Part shown: one piece after another, positions 25,912 to 60,669 of the stretch
Position numbering within the stretch: the first letter of the stretch is position 1
How the letters are laid out: each line of letters opens with the position of its first letter
Virus record (IMG/VR): IMGVR_UViG_3300009169_000019
Span: 1 to 64,000 of that record
Source: a virus
Taxonomy: Duplodnaviria; Caudoviricetes
Length of the DNA stretch: 64,000 nt
Strand: one strand, 5' to 3'
Position numbers and translations under genes: made by a program
The notes under the pieces: generated by a model
Database searches by the model: none
Told to the model about the DNA's origin: nothing
What the model saw: only the letters and a program-made list of their open reading frames with translations

Positions 25912-25916
25912 AACTA

Positions 25917-25948
25917 CAAATATACAACAAAATTCTGAATGTACCGAA
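25917..25948 (-). promoter_or_regulatory. Bacteroidota-type promoter for the GIY-YIG gene
   Basis: Minus strand reads TTCG-N20-TATATTTG-TAGTT-ATG. Confidence 0.6.
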
Positions 25949-25949
25949 T

Positions 25950-43000: not shown

Positions 43001-43092
43001 AAAGTTTCAAGTGTTCTAATGTTTTGAACTTCAGGAACTATTGGTGTTACCTGTTCTTCACCTATGGTTAAATTTTTTAAATTACTTTCCAT
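28054..43092 (-). CDS. Giant virion RNA polymerase polyprotein (5012 aa), crAss-like two-barrel RNAP
   Basis: Catalytic GSDFDIDK (DFDID at 31846-31860), preceding FRIPTQ, DGQGW, KHS; zincin-like FHEAFE; size and context typical of Crassvirales vRNAP. Confidence 0.93.
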   Translation of the reverse strand: MESNLKNLTIGEEQVTPIVPEVQNIRTLETFVPENPFKELNFDKLTFDKLTSTSQPQYKLIGLSDADIDRGMALGKQKLQQDPFIQAQRFEAPAVPGFQSALQSDYFQDIGVIPGMDIEETYGSAQTNWNKLSNAIMGSGSLALSQMKDQFLSWGDTVDIFKGDSPFKQSELEAINSWQNDFNNKYHIFQTQEDRNTFWNVSNFSNMIQQSGYAIGAVLEIAAEEFALSALTAATFGGASEIQAARSIQLASKLGKVINNTRNLEKSLQSTNVLRKIFNNSVTKFVNPLQNTAEYITDFSKVARIDQRAFGQGVGALRTTARGFGAFYRDLRMLNAGITEAKATVAPVMNEAYETAIEEYKNINGFEPSEELKTKLKQKAFETVQTEGAVQAAWIALTDKIAFDGILRTFKGTRFLDDDLVAKGIFTNTKKTIKEGGDLFVAKKGVAAFTHQLKTSPFKTLIKFPLEYAKTNVVEGLQETGQDVIDSATKQWYLYNYGTEQQRLNQKGINDFLYAGAKEQLTMDGLKTFMSGFLTGGILNVLGGGIKGAKSLYDKTVNTDGYKSSVQRANEERNKLVALLNQSTNNKTDFYRSLVELDSSMRLNGKEGRKKEYWDSKNDFINKYVLNIVKSGMEDVIIDRMKESISDLNPDEFKQAYAGSLYDGLSEEQSKNVMTGLVSTFESKVKEVKDTYEKIRDNYGNPYNPKNYKVGTPEYNAEVANYMAAEEAINQMAFSKSTYLDVAKRQKEILTNIKNNFPNLNFNSLYSLTSPSITLKKELELLQKEFEATSDPKLKEEKKQKLDLFNKYKESVEKYSAQIEEAGDNVDEIKKIKAEFLKENSQAISEILKLDNPDVSVITTTDVINNAVGDIFDYLRLQTDFEDAVSYFNTIANPAGFEGLHQAHLGEIMEMMGDTKMYEDAGKDYIEKNPKNNKHFVLRLKNKYVLFSPKGTYVDKFETIEEANSIAEQLDEIYDENANRITIDVVDINGEPGSIQIVENNFYLTEDKKLKKSKYTKNIIKIVSIEGDNITYQLNYQPTLETKTAEEFANEFGLLKNFKNLDLFERFFYVNRDKQFRIKINKKYSKPHRLDENDYTDTSVSVDAALVGEYTEDGVFKLYMQYKNPNSKSKMKVIKVPFNLKYYEKYALKRQPSGFGLIIDSINKEILLQEAEKQNVQDLEDQQSALVNLINRVEEKLEETKAKKESNSKRLQDLQAELELFQEELASAQDYIEKNPPSKTGRKKAEYIKMKEKINSFPNAIQSIESTIVNLNEELEDLNTLNESLVEARNNYYNALDEIEKTKEVFQTDETGTIYGEAESKLEDYRKELITKRYSKEQVDKLVEDTEFEIEELKELIEKFKEFSERAKEIWKKLSKYIDVIDILNSDNSKAWLTKYLKEIEDNSQDADKIEFLKFLRKGIVQNNLYSQVVFNLSGAFKNAKNAFDKINNELYPKLQRLQQASAQLGELSTLQERVDFLKYIQNELFEEVGYIKERRRIQFETTTAERAKNAKLNPDANIVEVVNGDDLFVSEDEFKRPLIGLTGLYLTTGRHYIDKNDTEINQESGNARFFKFTDNVNVEGGEYFLMPVTRANDPYNITIDENDIKVVVVRKEGENYFPVDIVGNKIDNPTSDNIVYTSLRMNQEQLFGDISSAVEWVEERFTTKGVTKEQITNMIFKYRDFVKNIRATVSENADMYIPITGKTVGQQVMLPMGENGLPQELELQGRVIEENTTDFANLRHPNGQGIKLKVATDKSDGIKPGRLYMKRDDGQIFRLFNRQLTQEEKDNFISLLKYYAKIYQKEKVEKLTTDEEANKNLILSYFKGLVFWATDDNVIESENKFYINQTGMLYRGRTPYDLNPSIIEENKEDIVSELRHQVNNSLLTKTNIPFYVPVVDKDNNVIIDAEYSNYTEYLFKTSTPVVYTNTPLYSETDVNTPQVKSSNLTYRNVDDDFKPIINYKNQSAVTIPGVGGAAIQLVSGQIPIFKFGTATDVSSIEKETAQPEIKQNTNPESITLIPGQIPTFSFKTESQPVAEQVSKNINAETEPISIGKRLEQIQAQGIFVEPVSPEQPKPLSESEKEEALKAFNQSGGVNILSAGLGGVKPNEAYRLQLEQSVIQTEDFKKVEEWFKSKLPNIKVVKVAELIDGKAWGAFKNSIVYIYENAEIGTGFHEAFEAVWNAYLTVQEQNEFVEEFRNREGSFTNPFSKETKNYSEASHYDVREMLAEEFRNYILSEQEQISTEEKGFFGKIKQFFKDLWSTIKKYVGLSKKEKSEGESAINKLFNKINAGNYSNVRFARDISEMGTSYREVVPNTTQEFTTQFIDGLSSYFFQNLHNPNLFTDNKGNFISLNIESLLTEDENNNKILRKLFETSMSNIYEQLFGQGSIFFTNYFAPTFINYQKQIGRNLTVEENNEIKNIAYNKFSEKNRYASMIENAFQNSTIVYNILKQSLQKYGLQFAEVKDGAEEDSAPNELDVVDTSGIRDTIYIDPRRLTATSFKILIGSLTKDIYDSKTNQIYTKKNSLNLPELVDYDATLNLLLNELNGTYSKLEVDQNGEVLFVDALKAMFKKLDEKYFDKKVNQYKPNFVWINKLKKRLKYSGEAINYFTKENINIDDLKLLIGFEKSLMNKKNTPSKLIINEDSSIYLMNALESTNEDRIREEWQGELPRNLKLVTDKEENNNQLLGIDDTGNIVFDKKSVQYREFLKLKNNNDKNISIQTALLYLKDMGVAFTGVEYKENKTISDIPLNIINKRSDVISSFIKIKNSIISNEENSIINIADLYSNIGPESGNMKKLIDIEKIMRYDSSVLTHTTASGETQYSITLPASINYVLSSLNESKTLADFVASNPQFGTAGYDENGEQVVNVFAYQTNSQLLKPGGLIFDENGNKKNNIDYTLISGVTSMDTNGVDTANLTYPDRIMQEINYIINADKEGLKPIYFTIINSDKSSEFGLTFSKPFISARIAEYDIDNPNFNKVLDIYLQHLEDEIDAAIVEKALKSNIQYYSDNVKYLGHFKDVLKFKTEKELKKSGERKSGLQVRFENLLAGKITKEEFLADNVIKELIKNDLKETVNFTIDALIELGIINQITEDQFTTDAINTQVLNDYFQIDSSNITRNQLEKLVKYITINKELAVTEQHKLLYGHPALYKDLAKRANGINSSKDAIVDNPHIISKMDSLIPRFDEKIRASEKIQTFKNISFKDVTAVSNFYKQIAENLYKSILLDGISLTEAQNRVGANFNEDGTFKNFILKDGKFTGEIKAYVELNEADGQGWIMSDMYRDMLFLSGKLSQKQLDQIDYEIAYEVVARSNKSKTDPAYKTYNKGKYAVKWAEGILKKGNPNVPLPVIKPQYFGYAVNTSMMHTVFLKHSVQPKFYRSVEGTEYEKLYLAAQNNQIDVIGFESGEKVGAMLNPKTGEFVSIIKNDGAVNIELKNKQWQLPSGLPVQSLYTKFYGIQSEQPAVYKNKVVRGTQLTKLIMSNFKVNGKYINDRAEVLITNYNRLIENIVKKGKEQLLVELGITKEKDGSYTVNDYTNMINLLRKELTKRDLPSNLVDALDVNPNTKGLLYRFDTLANRDKIDNILNSIMDSRVISAKMFGKPAVQVAFTGYNSTNRTMMYLKDGVYTEMKPDDQLTEDETKSLIPTSSDLKFYELKDGKISKMEIYIPWYFENVEPEDFGMKLVNGVYQIPANMDKRLLNMIGFRIPTQGMNSIENIVVKGFLPRESGDMIVVPTEIVGKAGSDFDIDKMNLYIPNYKLKYTRFTKETINDFKSTDYYKDLPKTVKNKIKNLTEEEFKDMVEDLNQFSAGSGLGKFGDLEDYLVAQNITGEDYIFYTTFKDALIKYNKYRKDVIKNNRINNKAFTPIIESIEYVEIGQDSMESLQNELRETMEELISMPENYRQLIMPNSTATLKSLANEINDLKGKKDAENSMLALRKFIQSAETRERYLTGKRLVGIAALQSTSHIMSQISDIVLSGKYEVSKMKFLVKYDPEFKTEDGKYVKAISINLSHNESKLGEFYINAKTDAEGRWISENISEALSGFVDAAKDPFVFSLNINFNTAGTWFYLQKLGVPMKEIAYLFNQPAVENFMKSENMNNSIFRKVNKNVTFREQIFINSISKYVKIYNNEMSSVIDQINEKTNILNTTESLNEQEVINLRVEIKALKEKLFQGINEIKNKYKKPTVDELKNAIKNLNNPKYKITEDDAAMQIMLLTDYLDYVEQSSYLTEFIGAIGYDNKKTKTIIENQLQLIRWNRMLEAGFIKNPDSILDKTFIGEMKKQKEDLFSVFENMFISLDRRAYPVFEKMYEFLEDREKFISNDDKSLLINKYQRFFITYVIQNTNFKLGEIETNISAKFKELMMGENSITKQLQLLKNSEDYNISQNLAIKELIPIFANNVDDQDNIKLFRNKMTTFKNDVLIESINNLLDYAKASGNTQLENFVYNLSIFSILQSGLQDSTINYTKILPAHLYSQVVNSILDVYMNSEFTIDPNLVWKQFHQNNKSDRNIVIRPQFKKFEKYTGNVLLDTDYSDSNYEYIATSKRKNGITDSQIEKLKKFGKLYKAFDTYLHQRIGYKTIQGKFKEREYAIYSPIVASGDGRNYTETSMENQLQSNLKKNNIVTPEGYKKPSQYEETPSISSLASVPAVTQETLRNLQEATQAAIQTLQQLNPQAAATILNQPTLQTSIQKQQPLGEIKLNIIEDWVQTGQATTTVRNSSYHNSFYKGDGVYTTDKGNLVNITHRGFVKLQGDKVVGNGFSYTKDEFAKAEGFGTWANFEKGAKYAGKTLMDGGSVHLYNITPATKVVQPSASVQPKGTINVYWGQAESTTSTRILSNLAPRKFSYESIDGVTREYGSVEHAYQSNKNGKFDKVTYDAYVAKGGYGVKIAPKLTEVGKRANLQIMKDLVVESFIQNPNSEAAKKLLQYENFTHNTNELIDKAFLEGLKLAQQRLLSSQQSTSVEGAEVVSGKTITLKDAVSYPVSKINSKLLESIGYTPLQIGNILKSIC

Positions 43093-46457: not shown

Positions 46458-48434
46458 TTAATTTCTAGACTTTCTACCTTTTGTTTGGTCATTCATCATT
46501 CCTTGTTGCATTTTCATATAATCTAGATATTCACTTACACTCATATTAGCATCTTTTGCTGCTTGTGCAATATCTTTTGCACTCATTTTTCCTGTATCAG
46601 ATTGACTATTAAAAAATCCCTGCATAGATTTAGGACTATGAAAATATATAGTTCCAGTTCCAGGTCTAACACCATAATAAGGACTTTCAGTCATACTCAT
46701 ATTATAAAGATCAGCTGCATTTCTTTGACCTTGTGTATAAGCTTGCAAAACACCTGTACGTGCTTGTCTCATAGCATTCTGATATTGTTGCTCACCTATT
46801 ACACCAGCATCATATAGACGTTTTGCTCTTTGAGCATCAAATTGTGCTTGTTGATTAGCTGTATTAGCAGCTTGCTGTGCAGCTTGATTTCCAATGGCAA
46901 CATTTTGATTAGCATATTGTCCAATAATATCAGCAGCATTTTTACCAAATTGTCCAGCGTTAAAACTATATCTGGATTGTGGACCAGCAAACATACCGGC
47001 AGCTTGTCTTGCAGCATTCATTTGTTCTGCGTTTGCAGCCAAAGCTCTGTTAGGATCAAGAAATGAAACTTCAGGTCTTTGAAATTTCATAGTTGGTTCA
47101 AAAGGATTAAACTTTCTAACACCTGCCATATTAACTATTGAATTCAAAAGATTAAGTTTATCAGGATTTGTCCAACCATATTTAATTGGAGAACTGTTAT
47201 ATGTTGTTATATTATACGCTTGTTCATTACCATCTTCTTCTTCATTTATAATATTAGGTTCATATTCAATTACACCTTCCTGCATCAAGTCTTTTTTGGG
47301 TGCAGTATTAAGATCTAATGAACGTGATTCAGCTTGTTTAAATGTAGTACCATATATATCATTAAATTCAGAAGGTTTTCTTGGTCTTTCCATTTCTACA
47401 TTGGGACCAGGTTCCATAAAATCTTCTGCAATATTAATTTTAGAAGGCTCGTTATTTTGAGAACCATTTCGATATTTATAAAAACCACCATATTTCATTC
47501 CTCCTCCATACATCATACTACCACCATACATTGCTTCAACTGGATTTTTCATTTCTTCTCTAGGATTCTCTTCTATTTGTTCTTGAGATTCAACATCAGA
47601 AGCTTGCATCATCTTTGCATAATATTCTTGTGCAATATTGGGAATACCTTGCGGATATCCTTTCTTACCTTCTTGTACAAGAGCAAGTTGTGCTAATTTC
47701 TTATTATAATTTTGAATCATCAGCTCTGCTGTACGTTTCTTAATAGAATCAGCTCTAGGATCTTCAAGAATAGCTTTATACTTATTAAGATCATATTGTT
47801 TAGCTAATTGGGCCGGAGTAAATTTTTTAGATGATTTTTCAGACTTACCAAATACACTAAGCACAGAACCGCCCATTTTCATCTTCTTTGTATCAGAAAA
47901 AATAAATGTACCTTCAGGAACATTTAATGGTACACCACCTTCAGTGTGTCTTTTACCTTTTATATTGTAATGACTTTTAGTTCCATCTTCTTTTGGAACT
48001 ACAGCAGTTTCACCACCCTCTGCTTCAATGTTTGCATACTCTCTTGGAACAGCAGACAACGTATTATTAACATCTAACTCTTCATCAGTATCTTGATTCA
48101 TCCAAAGTCTTCTAGAACCAAGATCTAATCCATATCCCATCTGACCACCATAAGCAGCAGTTTGCATATCATACCCCATATTAGAATCTTGGTCTTGTGA
48201 TTCAACACCTTGCAATTCTTGATACATTTGCATAATGGTTTGTTTTTGTTCTTCTTCTTCCATTTGTTGAAGTTGTTGAACAAGTTGTTGAGGATCGACA
48301 TTTTTAGCTTGAGCATATGCTTGTATAACTTGCATAATTTGCTCTTGAGGATTACCACTTTGTTGTTGCATTGTCATATCTCCACCATCTTGATATTTAG
48401 CAGGATACTTTTTTATTTTGACTTTGTATTTCAT
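46458..48434 (-). CDS. Virion cargo protein (658 aa) with xxGG motifs and Q/A/N-rich C-terminus
   Basis: NIEAEGGE..G.RHTEGGVPL..FIFSD motif seen in crAss-like cargo proteins; low-complexity helical tail. Confidence 0.7.
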   Translation of the reverse strand: MKYKVKIKKYPAKYQDGGDMTMQQQSGNPQEQIMQVIQAYAQAKNVDPQQLVQQLQQMEEEEQKQTIMQMYQELQGVESQDQDSNMGYDMQTAAYGGQMGYGLDLGSRRLWMNQDTDEELDVNNTLSAVPREYANIEAEGGETAVVPKEDGTKSHYNIKGKRHTEGGVPLNVPEGTFIFSDTKKMKMGGSVLSVFGKSEKSSKKFTPAQLAKQYDLNKYKAILEDPRADSIKKRTAELMIQNYNKKLAQLALVQEGKKGYPQGIPNIAQEYYAKMMQASDVESQEQIEENPREEMKNPVEAMYGGSMMYGGGMKYGGFYKYRNGSQNNEPSKINIAEDFMEPGPNVEMERPRKPSEFNDIYGTTFKQAESRSLDLNTAPKKDLMQEGVIEYEPNIINEEEDGNEQAYNITTYNSSPIKYGWTNPDKLNLLNSIVNMAGVRKFNPFEPTMKFQRPEVSFLDPNRALAANAEQMNAARQAAGMFAGPQSRYSFNAGQFGKNAADIIGQYANQNVAIGNQAAQQAANTANQQAQFDAQRAKRLYDAGVIGEQQYQNAMRQARTGVLQAYTQGQRNAADLYNMSMTESPYYGVRPGTGTIYFHSPKSMQGFFNSQSDTGKMSAKDIAQAAKDANMSVSEYLDYMKMQQGMMNDQTKGRKSRN

Positions 48435-48444
48435 TATTGTAAAT

Positions 48445-51306
48445 TTAATCTAAAAATTCTAACTGACCACCAGCTTTTAAAAATTGTTGAATTTGATCTT
48501 CATCCATTTCTACCACCTGTCCACCAAGTTGACCACCTTTTTTCATAAGTTCAATGTGTATATGATCATTCTCATATATTATATCTTCAATGCCAAATTG
48601 TTTTTTAATTGATGGATTGGATTTTAAATAATTTTTTAATTCGGAATATGTTTTTTTATTTGAACTATTTGCACCAATATCTATAGCTTTATTGCTATAA
48701 TGTTTTGAGCCTTTCATATGTCTGCTATCATTTCCAGAACTTAAAACTACACCAGGAAATATTTGAGATACTACATTTGCAAAACTAATTAAATTTGGAT
48801 GTAAGTTTTTAATATTAACATTTGATGATTTAGTTTTTATATTAGAAGCATTAGAATAGTTGTTATACATATTATTTCGAACTGGTTCAAGTTTTCTTAG
48901 CTCATTATAATTTATAGAATTACCTGACAATTTATTATATAAATTTAATTTTTCTTTAAAATCATTTCCCCAAGTTTTTTTGTTACCATAATCAGAACGT
49001 GGAACTATATCATAAACAGATAAATCTCCTGATGCAGCACGTTTTGCAAATGCAGGATAATACCAAGCTCCTAATGAATATGGACCATAATTTTTAATAT
49101 GCTGCTGCATTATAGTTTTTGCAGCAATGTATTCTGCATTGGCATCTGTCTTTACAGCATTTTTAAATTCATTAAACGTAGAATATTGTTTTTTTATTTG
49201 GGGATTTTTATATGCTTCTTTTATTGTGTCATCTGTCATTTGATAAGTACCAATAGCACTTGCTCTTTTTCCACCTTTTCCAACAAGATTAGTTCTTTTT
49301 CCAAGAGCAGTTTCTCCAGGTGCGGAACTAGATTCAATTCCAGCAACAGCTTGCAATGCTAAATCAACATCAATATTTTCTTGTTTTGGAATTTCATAAT
49401 TAGGTTGCGCATTTTGCAAAATGCGAACATAATCTTTTGGAGAAACAACAGGTGAAGAAGGAATAAATGGAGTGGTAATATTACTAAAGTCTCTAAATTC
49501 TACTTCTAGTTCTTTAGGTTTTTTCTCAATACCATACTCAGATAAAGTGGCTAAATCAGGAGTATATCCACCAACCTGATAACTAGGAACTTCCATACCA
49601 TACTTACCGTACATACCTTTATAAGAAAATGTACCTGTATTATAAGGTTTAAATGCACCATATGTAGAACCTGTTACACCATAATCACCTTTACTAGAAC
49701 CTTGAGGATTTGTAAACATAGCTGCTGTACTACCCATATTCATAGCAGCAGCATCCATATTTCTTTTTCTATTTCTTTCGTTTAATACATTACCAATAGT
49801 ACCAGCAAGTTCTACACCAGTTTGCATTGTATTTGCAATTTTACCAGCAGTTCTACCAAACTTCTGTATATCTGTTTGACCTGTTCTAAATCTAGCACCT
49901 TTTCCTTCTTCTTTAAGTTGTTCCCAAAGTTCAGGATCTTGTTTCTTTATGTTAGTTAATTGTTTATTATCTTTAGACCATGTAGTAAAACCTGTATTTG
50001 GATCTACCGTATTACTGTATTGACTTGAATCAAAAGGTTCAATATTTTGTTGTTCTTCATCATACTGCTCTTCATCCATATTTAATCCACCAAGGTCAGG
50101 ACTTTCATATAATTCATTTCTTCTATTTCTCCTACTACCGTTTACCCCGTCACCATATATTCCAGATTCTTGATTTTCATCTTCAATATCATATTGGAAA
50201 TTTGTATCAATGTTGTACGAACCATCGCCAGAAGCAGACCAAGATTGTCCAGCAGAAACATCTACAGGACTACCTGATGTGGGAGGTGTAGATGATGTTA
50301 CTGTAGAACCATCTTGAAAATAATATCCACTACCTGTTACATATGTACCAGAGTCTGTATTTCTATGAAACTTACCATCCATTCCATAATACCCACCTTT
50401 TTTAAACATAGTTCTCATTGCGGGAAATATAGCAGTACCACCTTTTTCATACATGCCTCCACATTCATAACAAGGTTGACCACCTTGTTTCATTTTAGAA
50501 ACATAATTAATAAGCTCGTTATTTTGTGTAGCACTACCCGTATAATTTTTTAAACCATATGATTCAGCAAGTTTTTTTCTTTCTGCAAATGAACTGTCTT
50601 TACCTTTTGATTTTAATAAATCAACAATGCTTGAATACTTATTTAATGGTGTAGAATAAGATGCACCAATAGCCCCCACTTCACGCATTGTTTGTGCGGG
50701 AGACATTGTAGATTGCAATGTTTTAGCAGCACCAAAATCTTTTAAAGGTACAGTTTGTAAATTATTCTTAATTAATTCTTTAGGAAGATTATAATTATTT
50801 ACAATAGGTGCTAAAACTTTAAGAGGTTGTAATGTTTTACTTCTATCTATATAAGGAGTATTAGCTGCCATTCCAGGTCTTGACCACATACCAGTAGATG
50901 TTTGCCATCCTGCGGTAGGTTGATTGCTCGCATATCCTTCAAAATCAGGATTGATATATCCGCCAGGTTCATTTACAGTAGGTATTTTATCAAAAGTTTC
51001 AACCATTGGACCAATAGCTCTACCCATTCTGTCAAATGATCTAGGTCTTTTAAAAGTACCAGATTCATCACGTACCATTGGTTGTAGTTGTGGAGTATAA
51101 TTAATCATACCTACATTTCCTTGTGTATTAACTCCAACTCTATTACGTAAATTTTCAGGAATTTCTACATTTATTCCATTTTGTGCTTCCATTAATTCAC
51201 CACACATATCGGGGTAGTCTGAACAAAAAGATGCTTGATCAGGATATTGATTATAAAAATCATCTTCTGATAATCCTGTTAATTCTAAAATACTTTGTTT
51301 ATTCAT
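48445..51306 (-). CDS. Virion cargo protein (953 aa) with DUF3597-like, lysozyme/SLT-like and peptidase M15-like domains
   Basis: SIVDLLKSKGKDSSFAERKKLA..NYTGSATQN; GIESS..SAIGTYQMT; SSGND.RH..SKHY..AIDI..DHIHIE. Confidence 0.75.
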   Translation of the reverse strand: MNKQSILELTGLSEDDFYNQYPDQASFCSDYPDMCGELMEAQNGINVEIPENLRNRVGVNTQGNVGMINYTPQLQPMVRDESGTFKRPRSFDRMGRAIGPMVETFDKIPTVNEPGGYINPDFEGYASNQPTAGWQTSTGMWSRPGMAANTPYIDRSKTLQPLKVLAPIVNNYNLPKELIKNNLQTVPLKDFGAAKTLQSTMSPAQTMREVGAIGASYSTPLNKYSSIVDLLKSKGKDSSFAERKKLAESYGLKNYTGSATQNNELINYVSKMKQGGQPCYECGGMYEKGGTAIFPAMRTMFKKGGYYGMDGKFHRNTDSGTYVTGSGYYFQDGSTVTSSTPPTSGSPVDVSAGQSWSASGDGSYNIDTNFQYDIEDENQESGIYGDGVNGSRRNRRNELYESPDLGGLNMDEEQYDEEQQNIEPFDSSQYSNTVDPNTGFTTWSKDNKQLTNIKKQDPELWEQLKEEGKGARFRTGQTDIQKFGRTAGKIANTMQTGVELAGTIGNVLNERNRKRNMDAAAMNMGSTAAMFTNPQGSSKGDYGVTGSTYGAFKPYNTGTFSYKGMYGKYGMEVPSYQVGGYTPDLATLSEYGIEKKPKELEVEFRDFSNITTPFIPSSPVVSPKDYVRILQNAQPNYEIPKQENIDVDLALQAVAGIESSSAPGETALGKRTNLVGKGGKRASAIGTYQMTDDTIKEAYKNPQIKKQYSTFNEFKNAVKTDANAEYIAAKTIMQQHIKNYGPYSLGAWYYPAFAKRAASGDLSVYDIVPRSDYGNKKTWGNDFKEKLNLYNKLSGNSINYNELRKLEPVRNNMYNNYSNASNIKTKSSNVNIKNLHPNLISFANVVSQIFPGVVLSSGNDSRHMKGSKHYSNKAIDIGANSSNKKTYSELKNYLKSNPSIKKQFGIEDIIYENDHIHIELMKKGGQLGGQVVEMDEDQIQQFLKAGGQLEFLD

Positions 51307-51381: not shown

Positions 51382-54300
51382 CTAATTTTTAAGATATTCT
51401 AACCAATTTCTATTATCTTTCTTAACAATAGGGTTTAATGTAGATTGTCCTCCTATTGCAAACGTTTGTCCACCTTCTTCCCAAGTACCAAATCTTTTAT
51501 GCCAGTATAAAGGACTAAATGGATCTGTTGCTTTAGAACTGTTTTTACCACCCATTCTATTCCAGAAGTTTTCTCTTCTTTGTTCAGAATGGTGTTGTTT
51601 AAAATCTTGCATTCCTTTATATCCACCATGTACTACTTTATAATCATCACCTTTTTTAGCTAACACCATCCATTTTTTACCAGGTCTTGTACTTTGTTTT
51701 TTTGCACCTACTTTTGTAAAGCCCATATTTCTATATCTTTCTGGAATACCACCTCCTTCAGCATAATTTGTATCTATAAAACTATTACCTCCTCTTGGTG
51801 CATAATGATGCTCACCTATATAATTTTGATCAACAACTCCTTCACTATCACCCATAAATTCTTGTCTTATAAAATTACCTTTTCTATCATATATATCTAC
51901 AGGATAAGTTCTTGGCTGTATTAAATTTGTTAAATTTACAGTTTGTTTTGGAGAAATTGGAAGTAATTCACCACGTGTTACAATTTTAGGGTTAACTAAA
52001 GTAGGTGCTACCATTTCTAATCTTTCTAAATGTTCTATAGGATGTGTAGATGCAGGTTGATATATTACTGGTTGTACTGGTTTTTTGTACTCAACAGCAT
52101 GACTTCCTGAAAATTTAGGATTGTTATATTCTTTTCCTTTTGGTAATATTTTGTTTGCTGCACTAAGTCTTTTAAATGCTGGACTAACTTTTTTAGTATT
52201 TTTATCATACCATTTATTTAAATAGTTTATCCATACATCTTCTGCATTTGGTAAGTTGTTAACTACTTTTAAATCATTTATCAATCCTTTACTTGCATTA
52301 TACAAAATTAAACTATCATTATACATTCTTTGAGCTTGTTCAAACTGTTTTCTGTCTGTATAAACTTTAGGTGGGTTTTGTTTTTGCCCACCAGGTCCAT
52401 ACATAGGAATACCACCATATTCCATTTCTTCTATAGGAAGTTCCATCATTCCTTTAGTTTCAGGATTATACATCATATAATCAGATACTGAATTTGCATA
52501 ATCATCTACCATAGTAAGTTTAGAACTAACCCATGGTTCTAAATTAGAATTTGGTTGAATAAACTTACGAAGATTAGTTAGTTTATTAATAGCAGCATCA
52601 ATTTGACCAATAGCCATTTCACCATCAGGTTCTCCTCCATTATTATACATAGAAATATTTCCTCCATTTTGATATTTCATACCATACATATCATTAGCTG
52701 CACGCTTATATCCTTTAGCTGCAAAATAATCAGCTATATCTTCTGTTGGAGTTTGTATATATTCTTCCATTTGATTAGGTTGATATGATAATTGCTGAGG
52801 ACCCGTTTGTATTATTGTAGGAAATACTTGATTATCTCCAAAAGACATTAATAAATTAGATGTATTATTACTATTAGGATCTTGTCCTTCAATATATCTT
52901 GTAGGAATACCTCCTTGATAACCTAATCCAGCAGCACGTTGCATAAAATTTTTATCTTGATTTCTTTGTAATAAAACTTTAGAAATAGCATCCATGCTTG
53001 GATCATTTACCATAGGTTTTTTTGTTCTCCAATAAACTTCTTCTTCACCTCCATCTTGATAATGACTTTTAATTTTTCTTTCTTGATCCAACATTTGTTT
53101 TGTTGGTACTTTACCAGATCCTCTGTTATCCCTGATATTATCCCATAATCCACGTTTAGAATATGAACCATCAGCACGTTTAATCATTTCTCCACCTTGT
53201 TCTTTTTTAGGATAATATATTCTATTATATATTGAATACGGCATACCTTTTGTTCTTTTTTGAGCAAAATCTTTTAAATCATATCTATCATAATATGATA
53301 AGTAATCCCCTTGTTTATCACGACCTCTACTAACACCAAATCTACCTAATAAACCAGCTCCATCTTTTCCACTTATAGGGGTTTCAATTTCTGATTCATC
53401 CGTTTGTAAAATTTCTTCAAGTTTTACTTTATCTTTATACGAATTAAATATATCTTGTTCAAGCTGAGGATCTACAGTATAATAATTTTTATCTACAGCA
53501 TTAATTGTTGGTATATATTTAGATTTTTTTAAATACTTTAATTCATCTGGTGTACTTAAACCTAAATAAAATTTAAATGCTTCTTCACTTCTGGGGTCAT
53601 AAGATTCCTCCCTTTGTTCATCCGAAACCCATCTTCCATAATTGCGTAAATCAAGATAACTAGAAGGATTAATTGTACGATAGGCTTTTTGTCTTTGAGG
53701 TAATGTTTCAGCAGGAAATGTTCTACTATTATAATTATTATAAGCATCTACATATGCTTTTTTTAAATTAGAAATAAACCCTCCTCCTCTTTGCATCATA
53801 GGATACTCTGTAACTGGAGCTTGGTTAAATGTATAATCACCTCCAGGTTGCATCATAATTTTTTGACCATCCGCACCAACTCCTAACACTGGATAGTTTA
53901 CACCACGCATTGTAATATTAGGACTACCAATTTGTGTCACTTGTCCTGGATGGGCCCATTGTCCTCTGTTGTCTTTTATTACCCCACCATATTTATTTTT
54001 TGGAAGATTTAAAAAATCTTCAAGAGGTAATTCATATGATTGATTAAAATAATTTTTATAATATTCACCAACATCTTTCATTGCATCTTTTTCTGCAAGT
54101 TTAATTGCTTCTGAATTTGGTGACTTACTTACATAAGGATGATATGGATATATGTAATCTTCTATATCAGGTGCATAAATTATATTTTCACTAACAGGAC
54201 CTTTATGTCTAAACTGATAAAAAGCAGTTCCTCCAGGATTTTGCAAAAAAACTGGATCATGTGAATAAGGTAAAGATATTTTATTAGGAATTACTTTAGC

Positions 54301-55272
54301 GTTGGCAAGCCCTCTATAAATAAAAGAATTTTTTAAATTATCAACTGCTTTATTATATTCTGCTTTAGAAATATTTACACCTGGATATTTCCAACCTTCT
54401 CCTTCTTTAATATCTTCATAAATTTTTTTAGTCTCAAGATCTATATTTTTTAATCTTTCTGCTTCACTTATTGATTTAGTAAATGTTGGAATATCAATTT
54501 GTGATTCATATATTATTGGTTTTTTAATTTTAATTGTTTTTGTTGAAGGAATAATTCCAGCTAAAGGATTAGCTAAGTTATTTACAAATTGTCCTGTTGT
54601 TTTAGAACCTAATCCTGCTAAAGCTCCTACAGCTAAAGGTGCACCTATACCTGTTACATAAGGCATGTAAGAATTAGTTACATTAGACATTAAAGGAGCT
54701 TCACCTAATCCTGCTGCCATATCATACAACATAGTAATAGGATTAAATGTATTTAAAAATGGTTGTTCAACTTGGTTTTCATTCCACCTACCTTTATTTC
54801 TTAAAGATTGTGCATCAACATATGCACGTTCTTTAACATTCATATCTTTATATTTCTTACTAGCTCCTGTGGGTAGAGTAAATACAGTTCCTTTTTCTTT
54901 AGCTTGTCTTGCAGATATTTCTTCTTGTAATTTTCTTCTTTCAGCATTTTTTTGTGCTAAAATAGCATTTTGCATTGCAGCTTGTTGCGCTGGTGTATAT
55001 GCAACATTTGAAAAATTTCTACGGTCTACAATAGGTTTATTTTTTAGAAACAACTGATCTCTGAAATTTACTTGACCTTTATCTTGATATTGATCTAATT
55101 CTCCACCTTCTCTCATCTTAATATCACCACCACATTTATGACATGTCATAGGATCCATTCCACCATCAGATAATTTCCATGACCAACCACAATTAGAACA
55201 TGTTACTTTTCTATTTAGTGAATTTTTAGATACTAATCCACCTTCTGCATATTTATCTAACCACTTTTTCAT
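51382..55272 (-). CDS. Modular 1296-aa protein made of cassettes separated by [YFM]xxGG motifs
   Basis: About 13 motif copies separating unrelated short modules; lies between the muzzle and cargo genes. Confidence 0.8.
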   Translation of the reverse strand: MKKWLDKYAEGGLVSKNSLNRKVTCSNCGWSWKLSDGGMDPMTCHKCGGDIKMREGGELDQYQDKGQVNFRDQLFLKNKPIVDRRNFSNVAYTPAQQAAMQNAILAQKNAERRKLQEEISARQAKEKGTVFTLPTGASKKYKDMNVKERAYVDAQSLRNKGRWNENQVEQPFLNTFNPITMLYDMAAGLGEAPLMSNVTNSYMPYVTGIGAPLAVGALAGLGSKTTGQFVNNLANPLAGIIPSTKTIKIKKPIIYESQIDIPTFTKSISEAERLKNIDLETKKIYEDIKEGEGWKYPGVNISKAEYNKAVDNLKNSFIYRGLANAKVIPNKISLPYSHDPVFLQNPGGTAFYQFRHKGPVSENIIYAPDIEDYIYPYHPYVSKSPNSEAIKLAEKDAMKDVGEYYKNYFNQSYELPLEDFLNLPKNKYGGVIKDNRGQWAHPGQVTQIGSPNITMRGVNYPVLGVGADGQKIMMQPGGDYTFNQAPVTEYPMMQRGGGFISNLKKAYVDAYNNYNSRTFPAETLPQRQKAYRTINPSSYLDLRNYGRWVSDEQREESYDPRSEEAFKFYLGLSTPDELKYLKKSKYIPTINAVDKNYYTVDPQLEQDIFNSYKDKVKLEEILQTDESEIETPISGKDGAGLLGRFGVSRGRDKQGDYLSYYDRYDLKDFAQKRTKGMPYSIYNRIYYPKKEQGGEMIKRADGSYSKRGLWDNIRDNRGSGKVPTKQMLDQERKIKSHYQDGGEEEVYWRTKKPMVNDPSMDAISKVLLQRNQDKNFMQRAAGLGYQGGIPTRYIEGQDPNSNNTSNLLMSFGDNQVFPTIIQTGPQQLSYQPNQMEEYIQTPTEDIADYFAAKGYKRAANDMYGMKYQNGGNISMYNNGGEPDGEMAIGQIDAAINKLTNLRKFIQPNSNLEPWVSSKLTMVDDYANSVSDYMMYNPETKGMMELPIEEMEYGGIPMYGPGGQKQNPPKVYTDRKQFEQAQRMYNDSLILYNASKGLINDLKVVNNLPNAEDVWINYLNKWYDKNTKKVSPAFKRLSAANKILPKGKEYNNPKFSGSHAVEYKKPVQPVIYQPASTHPIEHLERLEMVAPTLVNPKIVTRGELLPISPKQTVNLTNLIQPRTYPVDIYDRKGNFIRQEFMGDSEGVVDQNYIGEHHYAPRGGNSFIDTNYAEGGGIPERYRNMGFTKVGAKKQSTRPGKKWMVLAKKGDDYKVVHGGYKGMQDFKQHHSEQRRENFWNRMGGKNSSKATDPFSPLYWHKRFGTWEEGGQTFAIGGQSTLNPIVKKDNRNWLEYLKN

Positions 55273-55278
55273 TTACTA

Positions 55279-58200
55279 TTATTTTTGAGATATTTGGAGT
55301 TTTGTATTAATAAATTTGAATATCATTTTAATATCCCCTCTTCCATCTACACCTTCTTTTCTTATTTCTGGAGGATTCTTTCTAAGAAGCACCTTGCTTA
55401 CATTGTGTCTAAATTTCTTTTTCTGTGTAGACAACTTATAATAATCTACACTAAAAGGATTTACAAACCAGTTATATCCATTAGGAAATGTTGTTATTAG
55501 AATATTTTCGACACCACTAAATTCTCCCCTGTCTTTTGTAATATCATTAAACTGATTAAATCTATATTTTTGTTCTTCTTTAGAGAATAATATTTCTGTA
55601 GATCCTGTAGGATTAATTATTGGATAATTAAGATATTGGAAAGGATTAGACTTAGATTTTAAATTAAGATTAAGCAATCCAGATATTTGTTCTGAGTTAT
55701 AAACAATAGCTGAATCAAAGTTATAATCTAATAAATGAAACTTATCTTGTCCATTAGCACTGTATTTATATGCTTCTAAATAATATTCTACATTACGCAT
55801 TGTAGTAACAGTAGTTCCTGTTGGAAATGCATATTCTATTTCAAATGGATGATAGGTACCATAAAAATTACAAAAATCATCCCATCTGTCGTTATGTCTC
55901 CACAATCCAGTTTGTGTTTGAAAACAAGTTTTATATGCTGTATAAAAATGTCTCTTAGAAGGAAGCATAAATGTAGGATGCCAATCATGAAAACTAATCC
56001 ATTGTTTATTCTTTACATCATAAGAAATAGTCCAAGATGCATCTTCAAAATATGCAGGGTCACATAATGAAATAGGAATTTTAGAAAAAACACTAACAGG
56101 AGGAAGTATTTCTGTGTTATATTCTAAAGATTCTGTTAATGTATATACACACACAGGTTCTTCCACACCATATGTATATTCTAAAACACCAGCACCTGAA
56201 CAAGTATATTCATAATCTATAAATTCAGATTTATCATTTGTTGTAAATATTACATTAAGATCAGAAAATGAAGTTGCATTTAATATTTCAAATTGTGTAT
56301 TATCTATTAATGCAGCACCAAATCCTTCATAGGAGCCCTCAAGCTTTAATGTGTTGTTAACTTCAGTTATCTGTATAGGATAGATATGAAGATATGTATT
56401 AGATACATCATCACCAGATGAACCCGGAAGTCTACTATCAGCATTCATTGCAGCAAGATCTGGATCTAATATTACCTGACCATTTAATGTAATTCTAAAA
56501 TTAGTATATGCTGTAGTAGGGTCTACACTATAAGAACATATTGCAACATAATAAATCTTTTCATTAGGTACATTATTCAAATAAATATTATATGTAATTG
56601 TATCATTAGGAATACCAGATGTAGCTGTTGTCTTAATCATTAGATAGTTTACAGGTCCATCTGAAGATGTTCCTGTATCATTAATCCAAAAATTATTAAG
56701 TTGTCCAATATTAGTGTATGTACCAACAGCTGAACCATTATATCCAAGATCATACAATGCAGTTCCTAATGTGCCATATGTTACACTTCCTAAAGGTTCT
56801 GTAGAATAATTAGTTGTAGATATTACAGGTGGCTCTGTTGTAACTTGTTGACATTGACCATTTATATACTGATATCCAGAAGGACAGTCATATGTATATA
56901 ATGGCTCTACATTAACATTTATATTTCCATTATTTAAATAAAATCCAAATGCAGGATCGTATTGTATATCATTACGTTTTGGTATATAGTCTCTTTTAGA
57001 AAAATATACCACCTCATTAATATTGTCATATACAGTTGTTATACCAGCACCAATAACAGGATTATCACTTAAATTAAAATTAGGAAAATAATTAATAAGT
57101 TGTAAAGGAAGATATCTGCTAAACCACCATTTCATATTTGATTTAGAAATTTCTTCAAGTTGTCCCGTGTATGCAAAAATCTTACCTTGGTCTTGACTTA
57201 CATAAAATACACCATAAGGTGTAGATGTAATACCCCATCTGCTTTGACATGAACCATATTCATATATTTGGTCTGAATTAACAAGACTCTGTAAAGGTTG
57301 ATTAAATAATCCTCCATCTCCAATTGTTACTTTAATTCCTGTATCTGTTTGTAAACTATCAACACCCATAATTTGCATTGGGGATTGTCTATCTAACATT
57401 ATTAAAGCACCTGTTTTATTTATTTGTTTTACAGAAGTAACTTTAGTAGGCATGTCTTTATAGTTATTAACTAAAAAACTTTGCCAATTATCACGTTTAA
57501 GTTCTTCTTGTTGCGGTAAAGAATATTGAATTCTTCTTGGATAATAAGTGTAACATGTAGCCGCTACAAGTGGATTAAATGAACGTGGTAAAACTTGACC
57601 CCATGTAACAAATTGATTATACATTCTAGATACAGAAAGAGAATAATCATACTTATAAAATGCTGAAAATTTTACATAATCGCTTCTAAATAATGTAACA
57701 AGGTCTGTGTATCCATAAGGATCATAAAATCTTTTGCTTGCTTCATCTTCCCAATCTCTATATCCAACATTCACTTCAGATTCTACAAAAAAATCTCTTA
57801 CACCATTGCAAAATAAATAAAAGTTAGCAGCATCTACTTTCCAACCAGGATCGCCATTATAATCTTTACCAACAATAGTACCTCCTTTGTTAAGTCTATA
57901 ATATTTTTTAGGGCTTATTAAAATAGAATTGTCCACATATTGTTTTCTATTATCTACAAAATAATATGTACCGACAATATTTTGATATTGTAAATAGTTA
58001 TATGTAACATCTTCTGGTTGTTCAATAAGCCAATCATTAAAATATAAATAATTATTTTTCTCTGTGTACCGGTTTAAATATATGTCACCACCGAATAATA
58101 TTGGTACTTCATTTATTGTATATACACAACTAGAAATGGGAATTTGTCTAATAGAATCAATCTGCCCATACTGCGATGCAAAATCTACTTTAATTGCACC

Positions 58201-60669
58201 ATAATTAGATGATATTGTTCTTGTAAAACAATCCCCATTTACACCTAATATATTTTTAGAATCATCTACAATACCGGGATTAGGCATTGCTGAATTTAAT
58301 TTCATAATTATATATGGATTTCTATATAAATTATTTACAGAAAGTCCGTCAAATGATTGCACACTATCTTTTATATATCCATAATCAGATGTTGAAATTG
58401 TACTTGTTGTTGGGTTAAATGAGTTGTAAAATCCATGTGAATTAAACTGTGCGGCTAATTGCTCAGGTCCAATTAATGATGTAACAAGTTCTGCTAATTT
58501 TTGTCCATTTGCTTTTAATCCTACAGCAATTTGCCATGCAGCTGTTATCACTGTATTTGCAAAAATTCTAGCAATATATGATGCATTTCCAAATGTGTCT
58601 GGAGCTGAACCTATATTTACACCTAGTGTTAAATTATAAGGCATATCTGAATTACCTTGAACAGTAATTGGTTCAGCACCTAAAGCAGCACTAAGAGTTT
58701 GAAATGCAGCTACTGTAATTGCAAAAATATTAACTAAATCAGCACTACGTTGACCAAGCAATTTAAATTCTGGATGTTTATATGGAGCAGAATAACATCC
58801 AGACATTTGTCCATATGTATATCCATATATTCTTAAATTAAATGCACCTATGTATGGATTTTGAAATGTTGTGTCTGGTGAATGAAATGTTGCATAATTT
58901 GTTAATGCAGTCATTCCAACAGCACTTTCATAAAACGGATCTATTGTACTAATATCATTATAAGGATAGTTTTGCATTAAAACTTGTTGTCCTGTAGGAT
59001 TACTTGTTTTAGCATCTATAATATTGTATATCTCCATGTTGTTAACCATACCTTTGGCAATAACAGACTTATATCCTTCTCTCGAACCCCTTAATATTTC
59101 ATATCCAACTATTGAATCTATTATATTTCCATTAATATCTTTAGGAGCTGTAATACCTTCAAATGATACACCAAGCACTCTAATCTTACCACCACCATTT
59201 GTAAAATGATTATCCAATGCATTATCAGGAAACTTATGATGTCTTATATTTTTTCCACATAAATCAAATGAACCATTACCAGTGCTGTTAGGTTGATTCC
59301 ATACAACAGGATTATCATCAGGATATTTTTCTGTAGATTGCCAATATCCCATATATCCTGTTTTAACTAAAATACCACCATCGAGTTGTAACAAATTGGG
59401 AGATGCAGTAATTGTTGCAGTGTTTTTAGTTTGCCAGTTGGTATCGTTTATACCACTGTAATTAATAGGTCTACCGGGAATATGATAAGATGCAGATCTA
59501 TCCCCAGTATTATATATCCATCTTATAAAAAATGAATACACCTCATCTCTCATGTATCCAACATTAGAACCAGCTTTATGATAATAATCTTCAGGATATT
59601 CTACGGAATTCCACTTTGAAATAATTTTATTAGCTTGTGGTTGATAGTTAAAATCAGATTTTGTATATGGACCAACTCTTAACAAATAATTATTTAAAGG
59701 AAAGATTCCATCTGATTTATCAATTGCTGGTGTAATCAAAGGAATATTAGAAATTGGAATATTAACTAATGTAGGATCTATACTATCAATATAAATAGTG
59801 GATTGTCTTGTAGAATATACACCAAGTTGTTTTGCTACTGTTTGTGAATTGACAATAGAAATTACAACCACCTCCATTTCAGTAAAATCCGGATCTGTAT
59901 TAGATACACTCAGCTTAATAGCTCCACCTACACCACTATGACTCCATATAGATACAGGATTAGAAACCATAAGATAGTCCGTCACTTTGATTTGATTAAT
60001 CATATAAGCAATAGCCACTTGATATGTACCATTTTGTAATGTTCCAGACCCACTTCCTTTTTCAACTCGTAAACATGGTGTGTTTAATAATGGAGCAAGT
60101 CTTAATTGTTCACAATTTAATTGTGTAGTGTCTGTACATGTAACACAACCTGTAGGAGAACCTGCTGGCCAAATTCCTGGAGGATTTGATATGCTGACAT
60201 TGTTATCATCAACGCAAACTTGTTTCCAAGGAATATTATTAATATCCATCACTCTATCTGGATTATTTCCATCAGACCAATATATTTTTTCTGAACAATC
60301 AAATGTTCTTCTTGAAGCCCCTGTTATTAAATGCTTGGTATTAAAACTTAAACAATCATCATTAACCAATGTTGTATAAGTGCAAGTTAATTCATTAAAA
60401 ATACCTATCTCAGAATTAACATCATTTGTAGTAAATATTGCCCATCTATTTTCGTCTAAAGAAATGCAACCAATTAATGTATATGGAAGATTAACACAAA
60501 AAAGATTGGAAGGTTCATTACCTACTACGCCAACCTGACCATCATGAGAATTATTAACTAAATTCCTAGCATGTGTCCATTGCCCTTCGCCAATAAAAGT
60601 ATCATTAGGATCTTTAAGCATCCCTTTGGTAAACGAATTCAGTTGATTTGGTGTTTCTTTATTTGCCAT
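55279..60669 (-). CDS. Tail stabilisation/muzzle protein (P22 gp10-like, crAss-type)
   Basis: N-terminal FTKGMLKD..W..ARN, GYMRDEVYSF, WTISY..WISFHDW; beta-rich; follows the ring-protein genes. Confidence 0.8.
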   Translation of the reverse strand: MANKETPNQLNSFTKGMLKDPNDTFIGEGQWTHARNLVNNSHDGQVGVVGNEPSNLFCVNLPYTLIGCISLDENRWAIFTTNDVNSEIGIFNELTCTYTTLVNDDCLSFNTKHLITGASRRTFDCSEKIYWSDGNNPDRVMDINNIPWKQVCVDDNNVSISNPPGIWPAGSPTGCVTCTDTTQLNCEQLRLAPLLNTPCLRVEKGSGSGTLQNGTYQVAIAYMINQIKVTDYLMVSNPVSIWSHSGVGGAIKLSVSNTDPDFTEMEVVVISIVNSQTVAKQLGVYSTRQSTIYIDSIDPTLVNIPISNIPLITPAIDKSDGIFPLNNYLLRVGPYTKSDFNYQPQANKIISKWNSVEYPEDYYHKAGSNVGYMRDEVYSFFIRWIYNTGDRSASYHIPGRPINYSGINDTNWQTKNTATITASPNLLQLDGGILVKTGYMGYWQSTEKYPDDNPVVWNQPNSTGNGSFDLCGKNIRHHKFPDNALDNHFTNGGGKIRVLGVSFEGITAPKDINGNIIDSIVGYEILRGSREGYKSVIAKGMVNNMEIYNIIDAKTSNPTGQQVLMQNYPYNDISTIDPFYESAVGMTALTNYATFHSPDTTFQNPYIGAFNLRIYGYTYGQMSGCYSAPYKHPEFKLLGQRSADLVNIFAITVAAFQTLSAALGAEPITVQGNSDMPYNLTLGVNIGSAPDTFGNASYIARIFANTVITAAWQIAVGLKANGQKLAELVTSLIGPEQLAAQFNSHGFYNSFNPTTSTISTSDYGYIKDSVQSFDGLSVNNLYRNPYIIMKLNSAMPNPGIVDDSKNILGVNGDCFTRTISSNYGAIKVDFASQYGQIDSIRQIPISSCVYTINEVPILFGGDIYLNRYTEKNNYLYFNDWLIEQPEDVTYNYLQYQNIVGTYYFVDNRKQYVDNSILISPKKYYRLNKGGTIVGKDYNGDPGWKVDAANFYLFCNGVRDFFVESEVNVGYRDWEDEASKRFYDPYGYTDLVTLFRSDYVKFSAFYKYDYSLSVSRMYNQFVTWGQVLPRSFNPLVAATCYTYYPRRIQYSLPQQEELKRDNWQSFLVNNYKDMPTKVTSVKQINKTGALIMLDRQSPMQIMGVDSLQTDTGIKVTIGDGGLFNQPLQSLVNSDQIYEYGSCQSRWGITSTPYGVFYVSQDQGKIFAYTGQLEEISKSNMKWWFSRYLPLQLINYFPNFNLSDNPVIGAGITTVYDNINEVVYFSKRDYIPKRNDIQYDPAFGFYLNNGNINVNVEPLYTYDCPSGYQYINGQCQQVTTEPPVISTTNYSTEPLGSVTYGTLGTALYDLGYNGSAVGTYTNIGQLNNFWINDTGTSSDGPVNYLMIKTTATSGIPNDTITYNIYLNNVPNEKIYYVAICSYSVDPTTAYTNFRITLNGQVILDPDLAAMNADSRLPGSSGDDVSNTYLHIYPIQITEVNNTLKLEGSYEGFGAALIDNTQFEILNATSFSDLNVIFTTNDKSEFIDYEYTCSGAGVLEYTYGVEEPVCVYTLTESLEYNTEILPPVSVFSKIPISLCDPAYFEDASWTISYDVKNKQWISFHDWHPTFMLPSKRHFYTAYKTCFQTQTGLWRHNDRWDDFCNFYGTYHPFEIEYAFPTGTTVTTMRNVEYYLEAYKYSANGQDKFHLLDYNFDSAIVYNSEQISGLLNLNLKSKSNPFQYLNYPIINPTGSTEILFSKEEQKYRFNQFNDITKDRGEFSGVENILITTFPNGYNWFVNPFSVDYYKLSTQKKKFRHNVSKVLLRKNPPEIRKEGVDGRGDIKMIFKFINTKLQISQK

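Follow-up and report, generated by a model that had tools for sequence, protein, structure and literature searches.

Proteins assembled from many domains that travel with phage DNA, and cargo proteins carried by crassviruses, are both known already (Iyer et al., 2017, PMC5512222; Bayfield et al., 2023, PMC10172136; these papers, like PMC6235969 below, are cited from part of their text). In PhicrAss001, the muzzle gene (gp44) is followed by the genes for cargo protein C1 (gp45), cargo protein C2 (gp46), and the polymerase-associated gp47; gp45 is proposed to travel inside the particle and to leave it before the DNA does, and two of its pieces, a ring-bound helix (residues 214-245) and a portal-bound domain (425-552), were resolved by cryo-electron microscopy (Bayfield et al., 2023). 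Ejection proteins of podoviruses (T7 gp14/15/16, P22 gp7/16/20) are likewise packed in the head, leave it before the DNA, and cross and open the envelope (PMC10172136). Polyvalent proteins are long and multidomain, show highly variable architectures, and are thought to enter the host together with the DNA; their domains include a zincin-like (MPTase) peptidase, ParB-like, RNase, and kinase domains, often with lysozyme/peptidase modules (Iyer et al., 2017). The following text concentrates on one open reading frame (ORF) in 64,000 nucleotides of viral DNA (Duplodnaviria; Caudoviricetes), positions 1 to 64,000 of the IMG/VR record IMGVR_UViG_3300009169_000019, hereafter the window. The ORF (51382-55272, minus strand, ATG start) encodes 1296 amino acids (aa), and its product is very probably a mosaic protein of the cargo type, in which shuffled modules are delimited by a short connector motif.

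The connector, in its strict form [YFMW]xxGG, occurs 12 times in the 1296-aa ORF against 1.30 +/- 1.13 expected from 20,000 composition-preserving shuffles, none of which reached 12 (maximum 7). Overlapping GG pairs number 23 against 9.2 +/- 2.8 expected, a value again reached by 0 of the 20,000 shuffles. The original prediction had described a protein punctuated by [YFM]xxGG motifs, and all 14 motifs that it listed are found in their places: YAEGG (8-12), MREGG (53-57), YQDKG (62-66), NKYGG (426-430), MQRGG (493-497), KEQGG (690-694), YQDGG (738-742), YQNGG (867-871), YNNGG (876-880), MEYGG (950-954), YGPGG (958-962), YAEGG (1170-1174), WEEGG (1264-1268), and FAIGG (1271-1275). MQPGG (474-478) is an additional motif absent from that list. 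Compared with the rest of the window's proteome, the motif is concentrated in three consecutive ORFs, which together hold 23 copies in 2,907 aa (12 + 6 + 5), with 6 copies shared among the remaining 29 ORFs that are 120 aa or longer (16,611 aa), so the feature is wider than had been claimed. At the DNA level, the pattern ATG-N6-GGNGG is present 10 times in the window, always on the minus strand and between 47485 and 55116 (1.45 +/- 1.11 expected; 0 of 100 shuffles reach 10). In five related genomes (G001-G005; CheckV completeness 88-100%), 48 of 76 such matches lie inside the three cargo ORFs, and no second cluster is found elsewhere.

A search of 5.8 billion proteins yielded 281 relatives whose length is similar and a further 463 that are shorter. 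A typical match is 60-95% identical over 7-40% of the query; the relatives range from about 100 to 2268 aa, and almost none is colinear with the ORF. Recurring modules are 60-99% identical in other orders and contexts, and permuted arrangements include I-A-F in P0013 and D-C-N/Zn-Zn-G-I in P0020 (letters as in the module list below). Steps in the coverage by relatives fall exactly at NKYGG, MQRGG, KEQGG, YQDGG, YQNGG/YNNGG, MEYGG/YGPGG, YAEGG, and WEEGG. Among 641 internal ends of BLAST high-scoring segment pairs (HSPs) from 119 relatives, 64.7% lie at most 6 residues from a GG (18.1% for random positions), and for the 953-aa protein encoded next door the share is 50% against 12% by chance. 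Whole blocks are swapped or inserted between close genome pairs, with breakpoints located at the motif in L010/L012, L008/L009, and L020/L033. The clearest single case is the C-terminal module I: searched alone against 1.84 billion representatives of 50%-identity clusters, it gave 400 matches, 265 of them at E <= 1e-30. Among the 150 of these listed, identity is 72-99% (at least 75% in all but one). Its host proteins span 108-2662 aa and carry it N-terminally, internally, or C-terminally; P0391 (108 aa) is one stand-alone copy. Thus the claims that the motifs mark the borders of unrelated modules and that the cassettes are gained, lost, and reordered are borne out, with breakpoints concentrated at the motif and hardly any colinear relatives. 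The further description of the cassettes as small effectors is apt in part: the catalytic modules that can be identified in relatives are peptidoglycan hydrolases or binders. Modules seen there comprise glucosaminidase, SLT, amidase_2, phage tail lysozyme, YkuD, LysM, PG_binding_1, DUF3597, and DUF5872.

The grammar of the connector was derived from 1,513 unique GG contexts. Position -3 is occupied by M in 22% (6.4-fold enriched), Y in 19%, F in 8%, and W in 5%; position -2 favours Q, K, A, or E, position +1 favours E (20%) or Q, and position +2 favours I, V, or P. In HSPs of at most 75% identity that span a motif, conservation of the junction GG mostly amounts to 75-100% (about 50% at 3 of 14 sites), and that of the two x positions to 2-68%. 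Distances between motifs fall into classes of 0-9, 20-29, 60-79, and 85-89 residues; tandem motifs 0-9 residues apart make up 199 of 1,342 unique inter-motif segments and are the commonest or nearly the commonest class. In short proteins, for instance P0142, each small unit is separated from the next by a motif, and tandem motifs stand 3-8 residues apart. In proteins that end with module I, the last residue is exactly the W of WxxGG (5/5 among the matches listed), and in those that start with it, the chain begins just past the GG position (4/4: P0032, P0375, P0395, and P0391); the xxGG is thus present only between modules. A fifth N-terminal row, P0399, begins 11 residues inside the module and looks truncated. 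Since the motif's glycine codons are an ordinary mix of GGT and GGA (plus GGG and GGC) in the proportions of the genome, and since the flanking codons vary from site to site, it is the protein, not the DNA, that is under selection. The connector is conserved at the protein level, sits at module edges, and marks most points of module exchange.

AlphaFold was run twice on the protein, once for aa 420-1296 and once for aa 1-430, with fragment alignments as input, and the confident blocks, graded by predicted local distance difference test (pLDDT), are given below with the modules to which they belong, in order from the N-terminus.

55237..55272, minus strand: N-terminal leader MKKWLDKYAEGG (aa 1-12), predicted short helix, then the first connector.
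55102..55236, minus strand: Zn ribbon (aa 13-57), CxxC-x15-CxxC (CxxC...CxxC at 25-47), closes in MREGG; block aa 21-50, Zn ribbon fold, pLDDT about 80.
54562..55005, minus strand: module A (aa 90-237), helical; block aa 90-235, pLDDT 82-93.
53998..54552, minus strand: module B (aa 241-425), phage-specific, covered by almost none of the 119 relatives; low-confidence model.
53782..53982, minus strand: module C (ITMRGVNYPVLG; aa 431-497), small beta domain with an internal MQPGG, closes in MQRGG; block aa 429-489, beta, pLDDT 96-98.
53191..53781, minus strand: module D (aa 498-694), closes in KEQGG.
53047..53190, minus strand: module E (GLWDNI; aa 695-742), basic, closes in YQDGG; block aa 700-739, two helices, pLDDT 66-77.
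52660..53046, minus strand: module F (aa 743-871), closes in YQNGG, followed by a short NISMYNNGG connector repeat.
52411..52632, minus strand: module G (MAIGQ..PWVSSKL; aa 881-954), closes in MEYGG, followed by IPMYGPGG; block aa 884-943, helical, pLDDT 72-84.
51751..52386, minus strand: module H (aa 963-1174), closes in YAEGG; block at its start, aa 974-1039, helical, pLDDT 72-84, remainder of low confidence.
51469..51750, minus strand: module I (KKWMV..SPLYW; aa 1175-1268), Pfam DUF5754, closes in WEEGG; block aa 1179-1261, mixed, pLDDT 88-94.
51385..51447, minus strand: C-terminal tail (aa 1276-1296), after FAIGG, closes in a NWLEYLKN helix.

The five modules that had been named from the sequence, i.e. 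the Zn ribbon, ITMRGVNYPVLG, GLWDNI, MAIGQ..PWVSSKL, and KKWMV..SPLYW, have proved to be real units. The last of them, module I, matches Pfam DUF5754 (PF19058; E 3e-8, 34 bits at a gathering cut-off of 27.4, aa 1193-1240), and no other Pfam domain was found in the ORF at E <= 0.1. For the Zn ribbon, one relative bears the JGI name RPC12/RpoP, and module E is also found directly at the N-terminus of other proteins. The sole hydrophobic Gly/Ala-rich segment of the ORF lies in module A (aa 203-221; Kyte-Doolittle 1.40) and is helical in the model. All 11 listed motif sites within aa 420-1296 overlap segments of pLDDT below 50 at the edges of confident blocks. Fold searches added no named relative: Foldseek with both models against the PDB gave no match at E <= 1e-3 (the best being cupin-like, 0.2, and the Zn lid of adenylate kinase, 0.77), the BFVD search returned only uncharacterised viral proteins, and ESM Atlas only unnamed viral clusters, which are leads and not evidence.

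The window protein begins with MKKWLDKY and ends with NWLEYLKN. Among 240 proteins of the family, the word WL[DEK]xY stands at the N-terminus (after M-x-x) in 33, at the C-terminus in 55, and at both ends in 22; it also occurs internally, as GG-WLDKY-xx-GG. The word might be a docking helix or a place where genes preferentially split and fuse. PhicrAss001 carries on its muzzle an unassigned helix of 14 residues, to which the terminal WL[DEK]xY helix might correspond.

The window is AT-rich (GC content 23-37%), and very large genes on the minus strand form a long block from about 19.9 kb to its end. On the evidence of its genes, it is assigned to a crAss-like phage. The start codon of the 1296-aa ORF lies 6 nucleotides past the stop of the muzzle gene, and CrAss_Ring_1 and CrAss_Ring_2 (crass tail ring proteins 1 and 2) are matched farther upstream of the latter. 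Downstream follow, in this order, ORFs of 953, 658, 1078, and 5012 aa. The landmark gene and the two other motif-bearing ORFs are:

55279..60669, minus strand: muzzle protein gene (Pfam crAss_MUZ, E 3.7e-21), landmark of the locus, next upstream of the 1296-aa ORF.
48445..51306, minus strand: second motif-bearing ORF, 953 aa, cargo-type, 6 motifs, with a DUF3597 (LysM-like) domain.
46458..48434, minus strand: third motif-bearing ORF, 658 aa, 5 motifs, with an N-terminal leader closing in YQDGG at aa 14-18.

The muzzle ORF also matches PHROG virion structural families, and its closest cultured relatives, in Leptolyngbya, Cellulophaga, and Flavobacterium phages, are about 25% identical. Its position next to the muzzle gene, together with the gene order of PhicrAss001, makes the 1296-aa ORF the first gene of a crAss-like cargo block. 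Three genes make up this block, which separates the muzzle gene from the giant polymerase-like genes, and the 1296-aa ORF both leads it and varies the most. The arrangement recurs: of 33 related loci with a muzzle homologue, 25 bear at least 3 motifs in the first following ORF of 150 aa or more, and in 7 of the remaining 8, an ORF with at least 3 motifs sits 2.9-4.7 kb farther down. The 658-aa family is kept in 39 distinct ORFs of related loci, and relatives of the 953-aa protein carry the JGI name L-Ala-D-Glu endopeptidase CwlK; against the PDB, the 953-aa ORF gave by sequence only chance-level rows (E >= 0.15), and an SLT-like and a LAS-type peptidase motif in it are putative.

Like the 1296-aa ORF, PhicrAss001 gp45 is encoded by the first gene after the muzzle gene, has a leader closing in an aromatic-xx-GG (FDTGG, 17-21), and contains, in its N-terminal quarter, a single hydrophobic Gly-rich segment (140-158, predicted as transmembrane; Kyte-Doolittle 1.73, compared with 1.40 for the segment at 203-221 in the window protein). 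Its resolved pieces are bracketed by AYGG 209, FAEGG 260, AFGG 427, and FAYGG 559. In its 842 aa it holds 20 GG, but only 3 strict [YFMW]xxGG. The window protein differs in being longer and in its widely circulating modules. A virion protein of Cellulophaga phage phi4:1 identified by mass spectrometry, gp040, contains FQAGG, YQNGG, FQIGG, and FQSGG. The distant crAss-like phages csAssE-Sib, Fpv1, and Lbo-JY46 show little or no enrichment of the motif, so the motif-rich state is specific to a clade and not a general trait of crassviruses. The dense array thus elaborates, within one clade, on a feature that is fainter across the wider group. A homology between the 658-aa ORF and gp45's portal-binding domain, suspected by eye, found no support: a profile built from 40 sequences (that of the window and those of the 39 locus ORFs) gave no match on gp43-47, and phmmer found none in the PDB.

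With little better than even confidence, the 1296-aa ORF is read as a virion cargo protein in the C1 place that is packaged, ejected, and employed in breaching the envelope, with its modules held on flexible hinges that are not cleaved. For the connector taken by itself, a role as an uncleaved hinge or joint comes close to an even chance. The standard connector (M/Y/F/W, two variable residues, and Gly-Gly, often followed by E/Q and I/V/P) would string together independently folding modules like beads, and the hinge would let each bead fold, unfold, and refold alone while the protein is packed into head and tail. The chain would then leave the particle before the DNA, pass as a thread through the tail channel, and take up its place in the host envelope, where its beads may act alongside the peptidoglycan-hydrolase beads of neighbours and relatives. 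An envelope role would fit both the peptidoglycan-hydrolase modules of relatives and the CwlK-named relatives of the 953-aa neighbour. With an identical in-frame joint on each module, newly combined proteins would stay functional, which would account for the rapid turnover of cassettes.

Several observations weigh against this reading of a packaged, hinged cargo protein. BLASTP of the ORF gave no match to gp45 or gp46 at E <= 1, phmmer against PDB chains none at E <= 1, and tblastn against 50,697 phage records one weak match and none usable, so that no cultured close relative was found. The C1 assignment comes from position and architecture, and presence in the virion is predicted. The overall confidence of the AlphaFold models is low (mean pLDDT 54.5 and 57.4), and in the model of aa 420-1296, 417 of 877 residues (48%) fall below pLDDT 50; hence the placement of the motifs agrees with a joint but is no proof of it, and the appearance of a disordered linker partly reflects thin alignments. 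MQPGG (474-478) is buried inside the confident module C, and some breakpoints between close relatives lie away from motifs (L003/L004; part of L014/L030). The conserved hydrophobic residue at -3 and the preferred E/Q at +1 go beyond the needs of a passive hinge, which suggests recognition by a protease, by a receptor, or by the motif itself. As to the first of these, the queries for proteases were seven only, adenain (PF00770) not among them, and the window's own source contig (72,359 nucleotides, not circular by its ends) is without head genes.

Cleavage at the connectors by a phage or host protease, with a precursor packaged through its conserved ends and cut in the head or after ejection, is unlikely, though by no means negligible. 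Polyprotein sites usually look like this, i.e. short and specific motifs that separate autonomous modules and lie within linkers of low confidence, and natural protein ends meet the motif's edges at the W or just past the GG. The modules work in any order, and module I exists as the stand-alone copy mentioned above. Moreover, non-homologous proteins of the cargo locus all open with a leader of 12-29 residues that closes in the motif, e.g. MKKWLDKYAEGG, MK.YKVRIKK..MAYGG, MNKLLQ...MQKGG, the FDTGG of gp45, and FAPGG (12-16) in csAssE-Sib. GG-type sites are known for adenain, pS273R of African swine fever virus, Ulp/SENP, and the C39 double-glycine leaders, where, as here, GG follows a hydrophobic position at polyprotein or leader borders. 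Unlike in the adenain rule, however, the hydrophobic residue of the window's motif stands one position farther from the GG, five residues before the presumed cut. Tandem motifs are common and often only 3-8 residues apart, which also speaks against cleavage. None of the seven protease queries (C39, S78, S77, ClpP, C48, Asp_protease_2, and PhicrAss001 gp66) found a match in the five near-complete relatives: the result was 0/5 for each of PF03412, PF02902, PF04586, PF00574, PF13650, and gp66 (the last without a positive control), and PF03420 (S77) gave no match with its control silent. PhicrAss001 gp66 (L052, 38493-39008) is a 171-aa protein annotated as 'aspartyl protease' in the replication module. 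The part of the text of PMC10172136 cited here contains no words beginning with 'proteoly', 'cleav', or 'protease', and gp45 is modelled there as one chain. The suggestion that the motif is a maturation-protease site is thereby weakened and not supported so far.

It is distinctly unlikely that the motif serves for docking, i.e. that the aromatic residue or Met plus GG form short linear motifs that bind the portal, the lumen of ring and muzzle, the capsid interior, or each other, with their many copies concentrating these proteins in the cargo zone. The motif is multivalent, often tandem, conserved, and located in regions predicted to be disordered, and its genome-wide confinement to proteins of the cargo locus (the 48 of 76 DNA matches in G001-G005) is in line with such a role. 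So are the portal-bound domain of gp45, which begins at AFGGWL, the same WL[DEK]xY helix word at N- and C-termini, and the conserved C-terminal tails of neighbouring cargo proteins. However, other presumed cargo proteins are nearly free of the motif: the 5012-aa and 1078-aa ORFs have 1 copy each, so that it cannot be a general packaging signal, and the earlier proposal of a capsid-packaging tag loses ground. Furthermore, modules at the end of a chain lack the xxGG, as would be expected of a joint rather than of a tag on each module. A role of the connector other than hinge, processing site, or docking is very unlikely. Finally, the breakpoints do concentrate at the motif, but the notion that GGNGGN words are recombination hotspots with the protein motif as a by-product is hardly credible and was rejected, since glycine codon usage at the motif resembles the background (heterogeneous GGT/GGA/GGG/GGC, flanking codons differing by site) and the conserved hydrophobic residue is encoded by the unrelated codons ATG, TAT, TTT, and TGG.

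Compared with the other described systems, polyvalent proteins share with the window ORF the many domains on one polypeptide and the highly variable architectures. A uniform connector motif is not in their description, and the cited part of PMC5512222 contains no words beginning with 'glycine', 'linker', or 'crAss'. In the Pfam search of the ORF (E <= 0.1), none of the polyvalent hallmark domains was found, DUF5754 being the only match. MuF is a further hallmark domain of polyvalent proteins. In T-even gp38 adhesins, conserved Gly motifs delimit hypervariable segments that are swapped by recombination; gp38 differs in being a receptor-binding protein of the fibre tip whose Gly motifs lie within one fold and are not linkers between modules. 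The podovirus ejection proteins have in common with the present case that relatives of the window proteins carry peptidoglycan hydrolase modules, but descriptions of them do not present a mosaic in which shuffled mini-modules share one joint. The literature search found no description of a uniform hydrophobic-xx-GG joint, of module circulation on this scale, of the matching words at protein ends, or of a function for DUF5754.

No part of crAss-like virions is less well understood than the cargo proteins, which leave the particle first and have to open the envelope of Bacteroidota. A large uncultured clade assembles them from a shared pool of small modules by means of one standard joint. This offers a simple key to their architecture, to the dating of exchanges, and to the location of module borders, and it points to a natural site at which foreign cargo might be inserted into such virions. 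Very conserved modules, most clearly DUF5754, are candidates for proteins that meet a conserved target. According to a bolder proposal, to which only a minor share of belief is given, the hydrophobic-xx-GG joints are sites of an unrecognised protease, the head and tail cargo of this clade would be bacteriophage polyproteins, and each cassette would be released alone and hence freely swapped. If so, the presence of gp45 pieces in tail and capsid would have an alternative reason, namely separate fragments instead of one chain threaded through the portal. For the cultured PhicrAss001, this raises the concrete question of whether the aromatic-GG sites of gp45 are cut or uncut; PMC6235969 gives band sizes from denaturing gel electrophoresis (SDS-PAGE), and in the part of its text cited here no band is assigned to gp45.

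A few observations concern the surroundings of the three-gene block. The C-terminus of the 953-aa ORF (48445-48540, minus strand) is a conserved tail of about 25 residues, ...VVEMDEDQIQQFLKAGGQLEFLD, with the consensus E-x-D/T-E-D/E-Q/E-I/L-x-x-L/I-x-x-x-G-G/Y-x-x-E-F/I-L/I; a narrow pattern finds it in 20 of 351 ORFs, and more are seen by eye. In many loci the same tail, a candidate signal for packaging or docking, also closes an extra ORF preceding the 658-aa family. One identical word, ATGATGAAAGGTGG (MMKGG), is found a single time in each of four of the five relatives, well away from the cargo block (G001:57842, G002:120828, G004:73624, and G005:7980), which suggests a conserved motif-bearing gene outside this block. 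The single 5012-aa ORF (28054-43092, minus strand) shows weak similarity to PhicrAss001 gp47 (E 8.8e-7 and 4.8e-5) and probably encodes a fused, virion polymerase-associated giant protein. Amid the large genes of the structural and cargo block lies an ORF with GIY-YIG and helix-turn-helix domains (25174-25959, minus strand; Pfam E 1.9e-11), probably a homing endonuclease, and at the end of the large-gene block a 1762-aa ORF (19884-25172, minus strand) contains a PD-(D/E)XK nuclease domain (Pfam E 4.2e-7).

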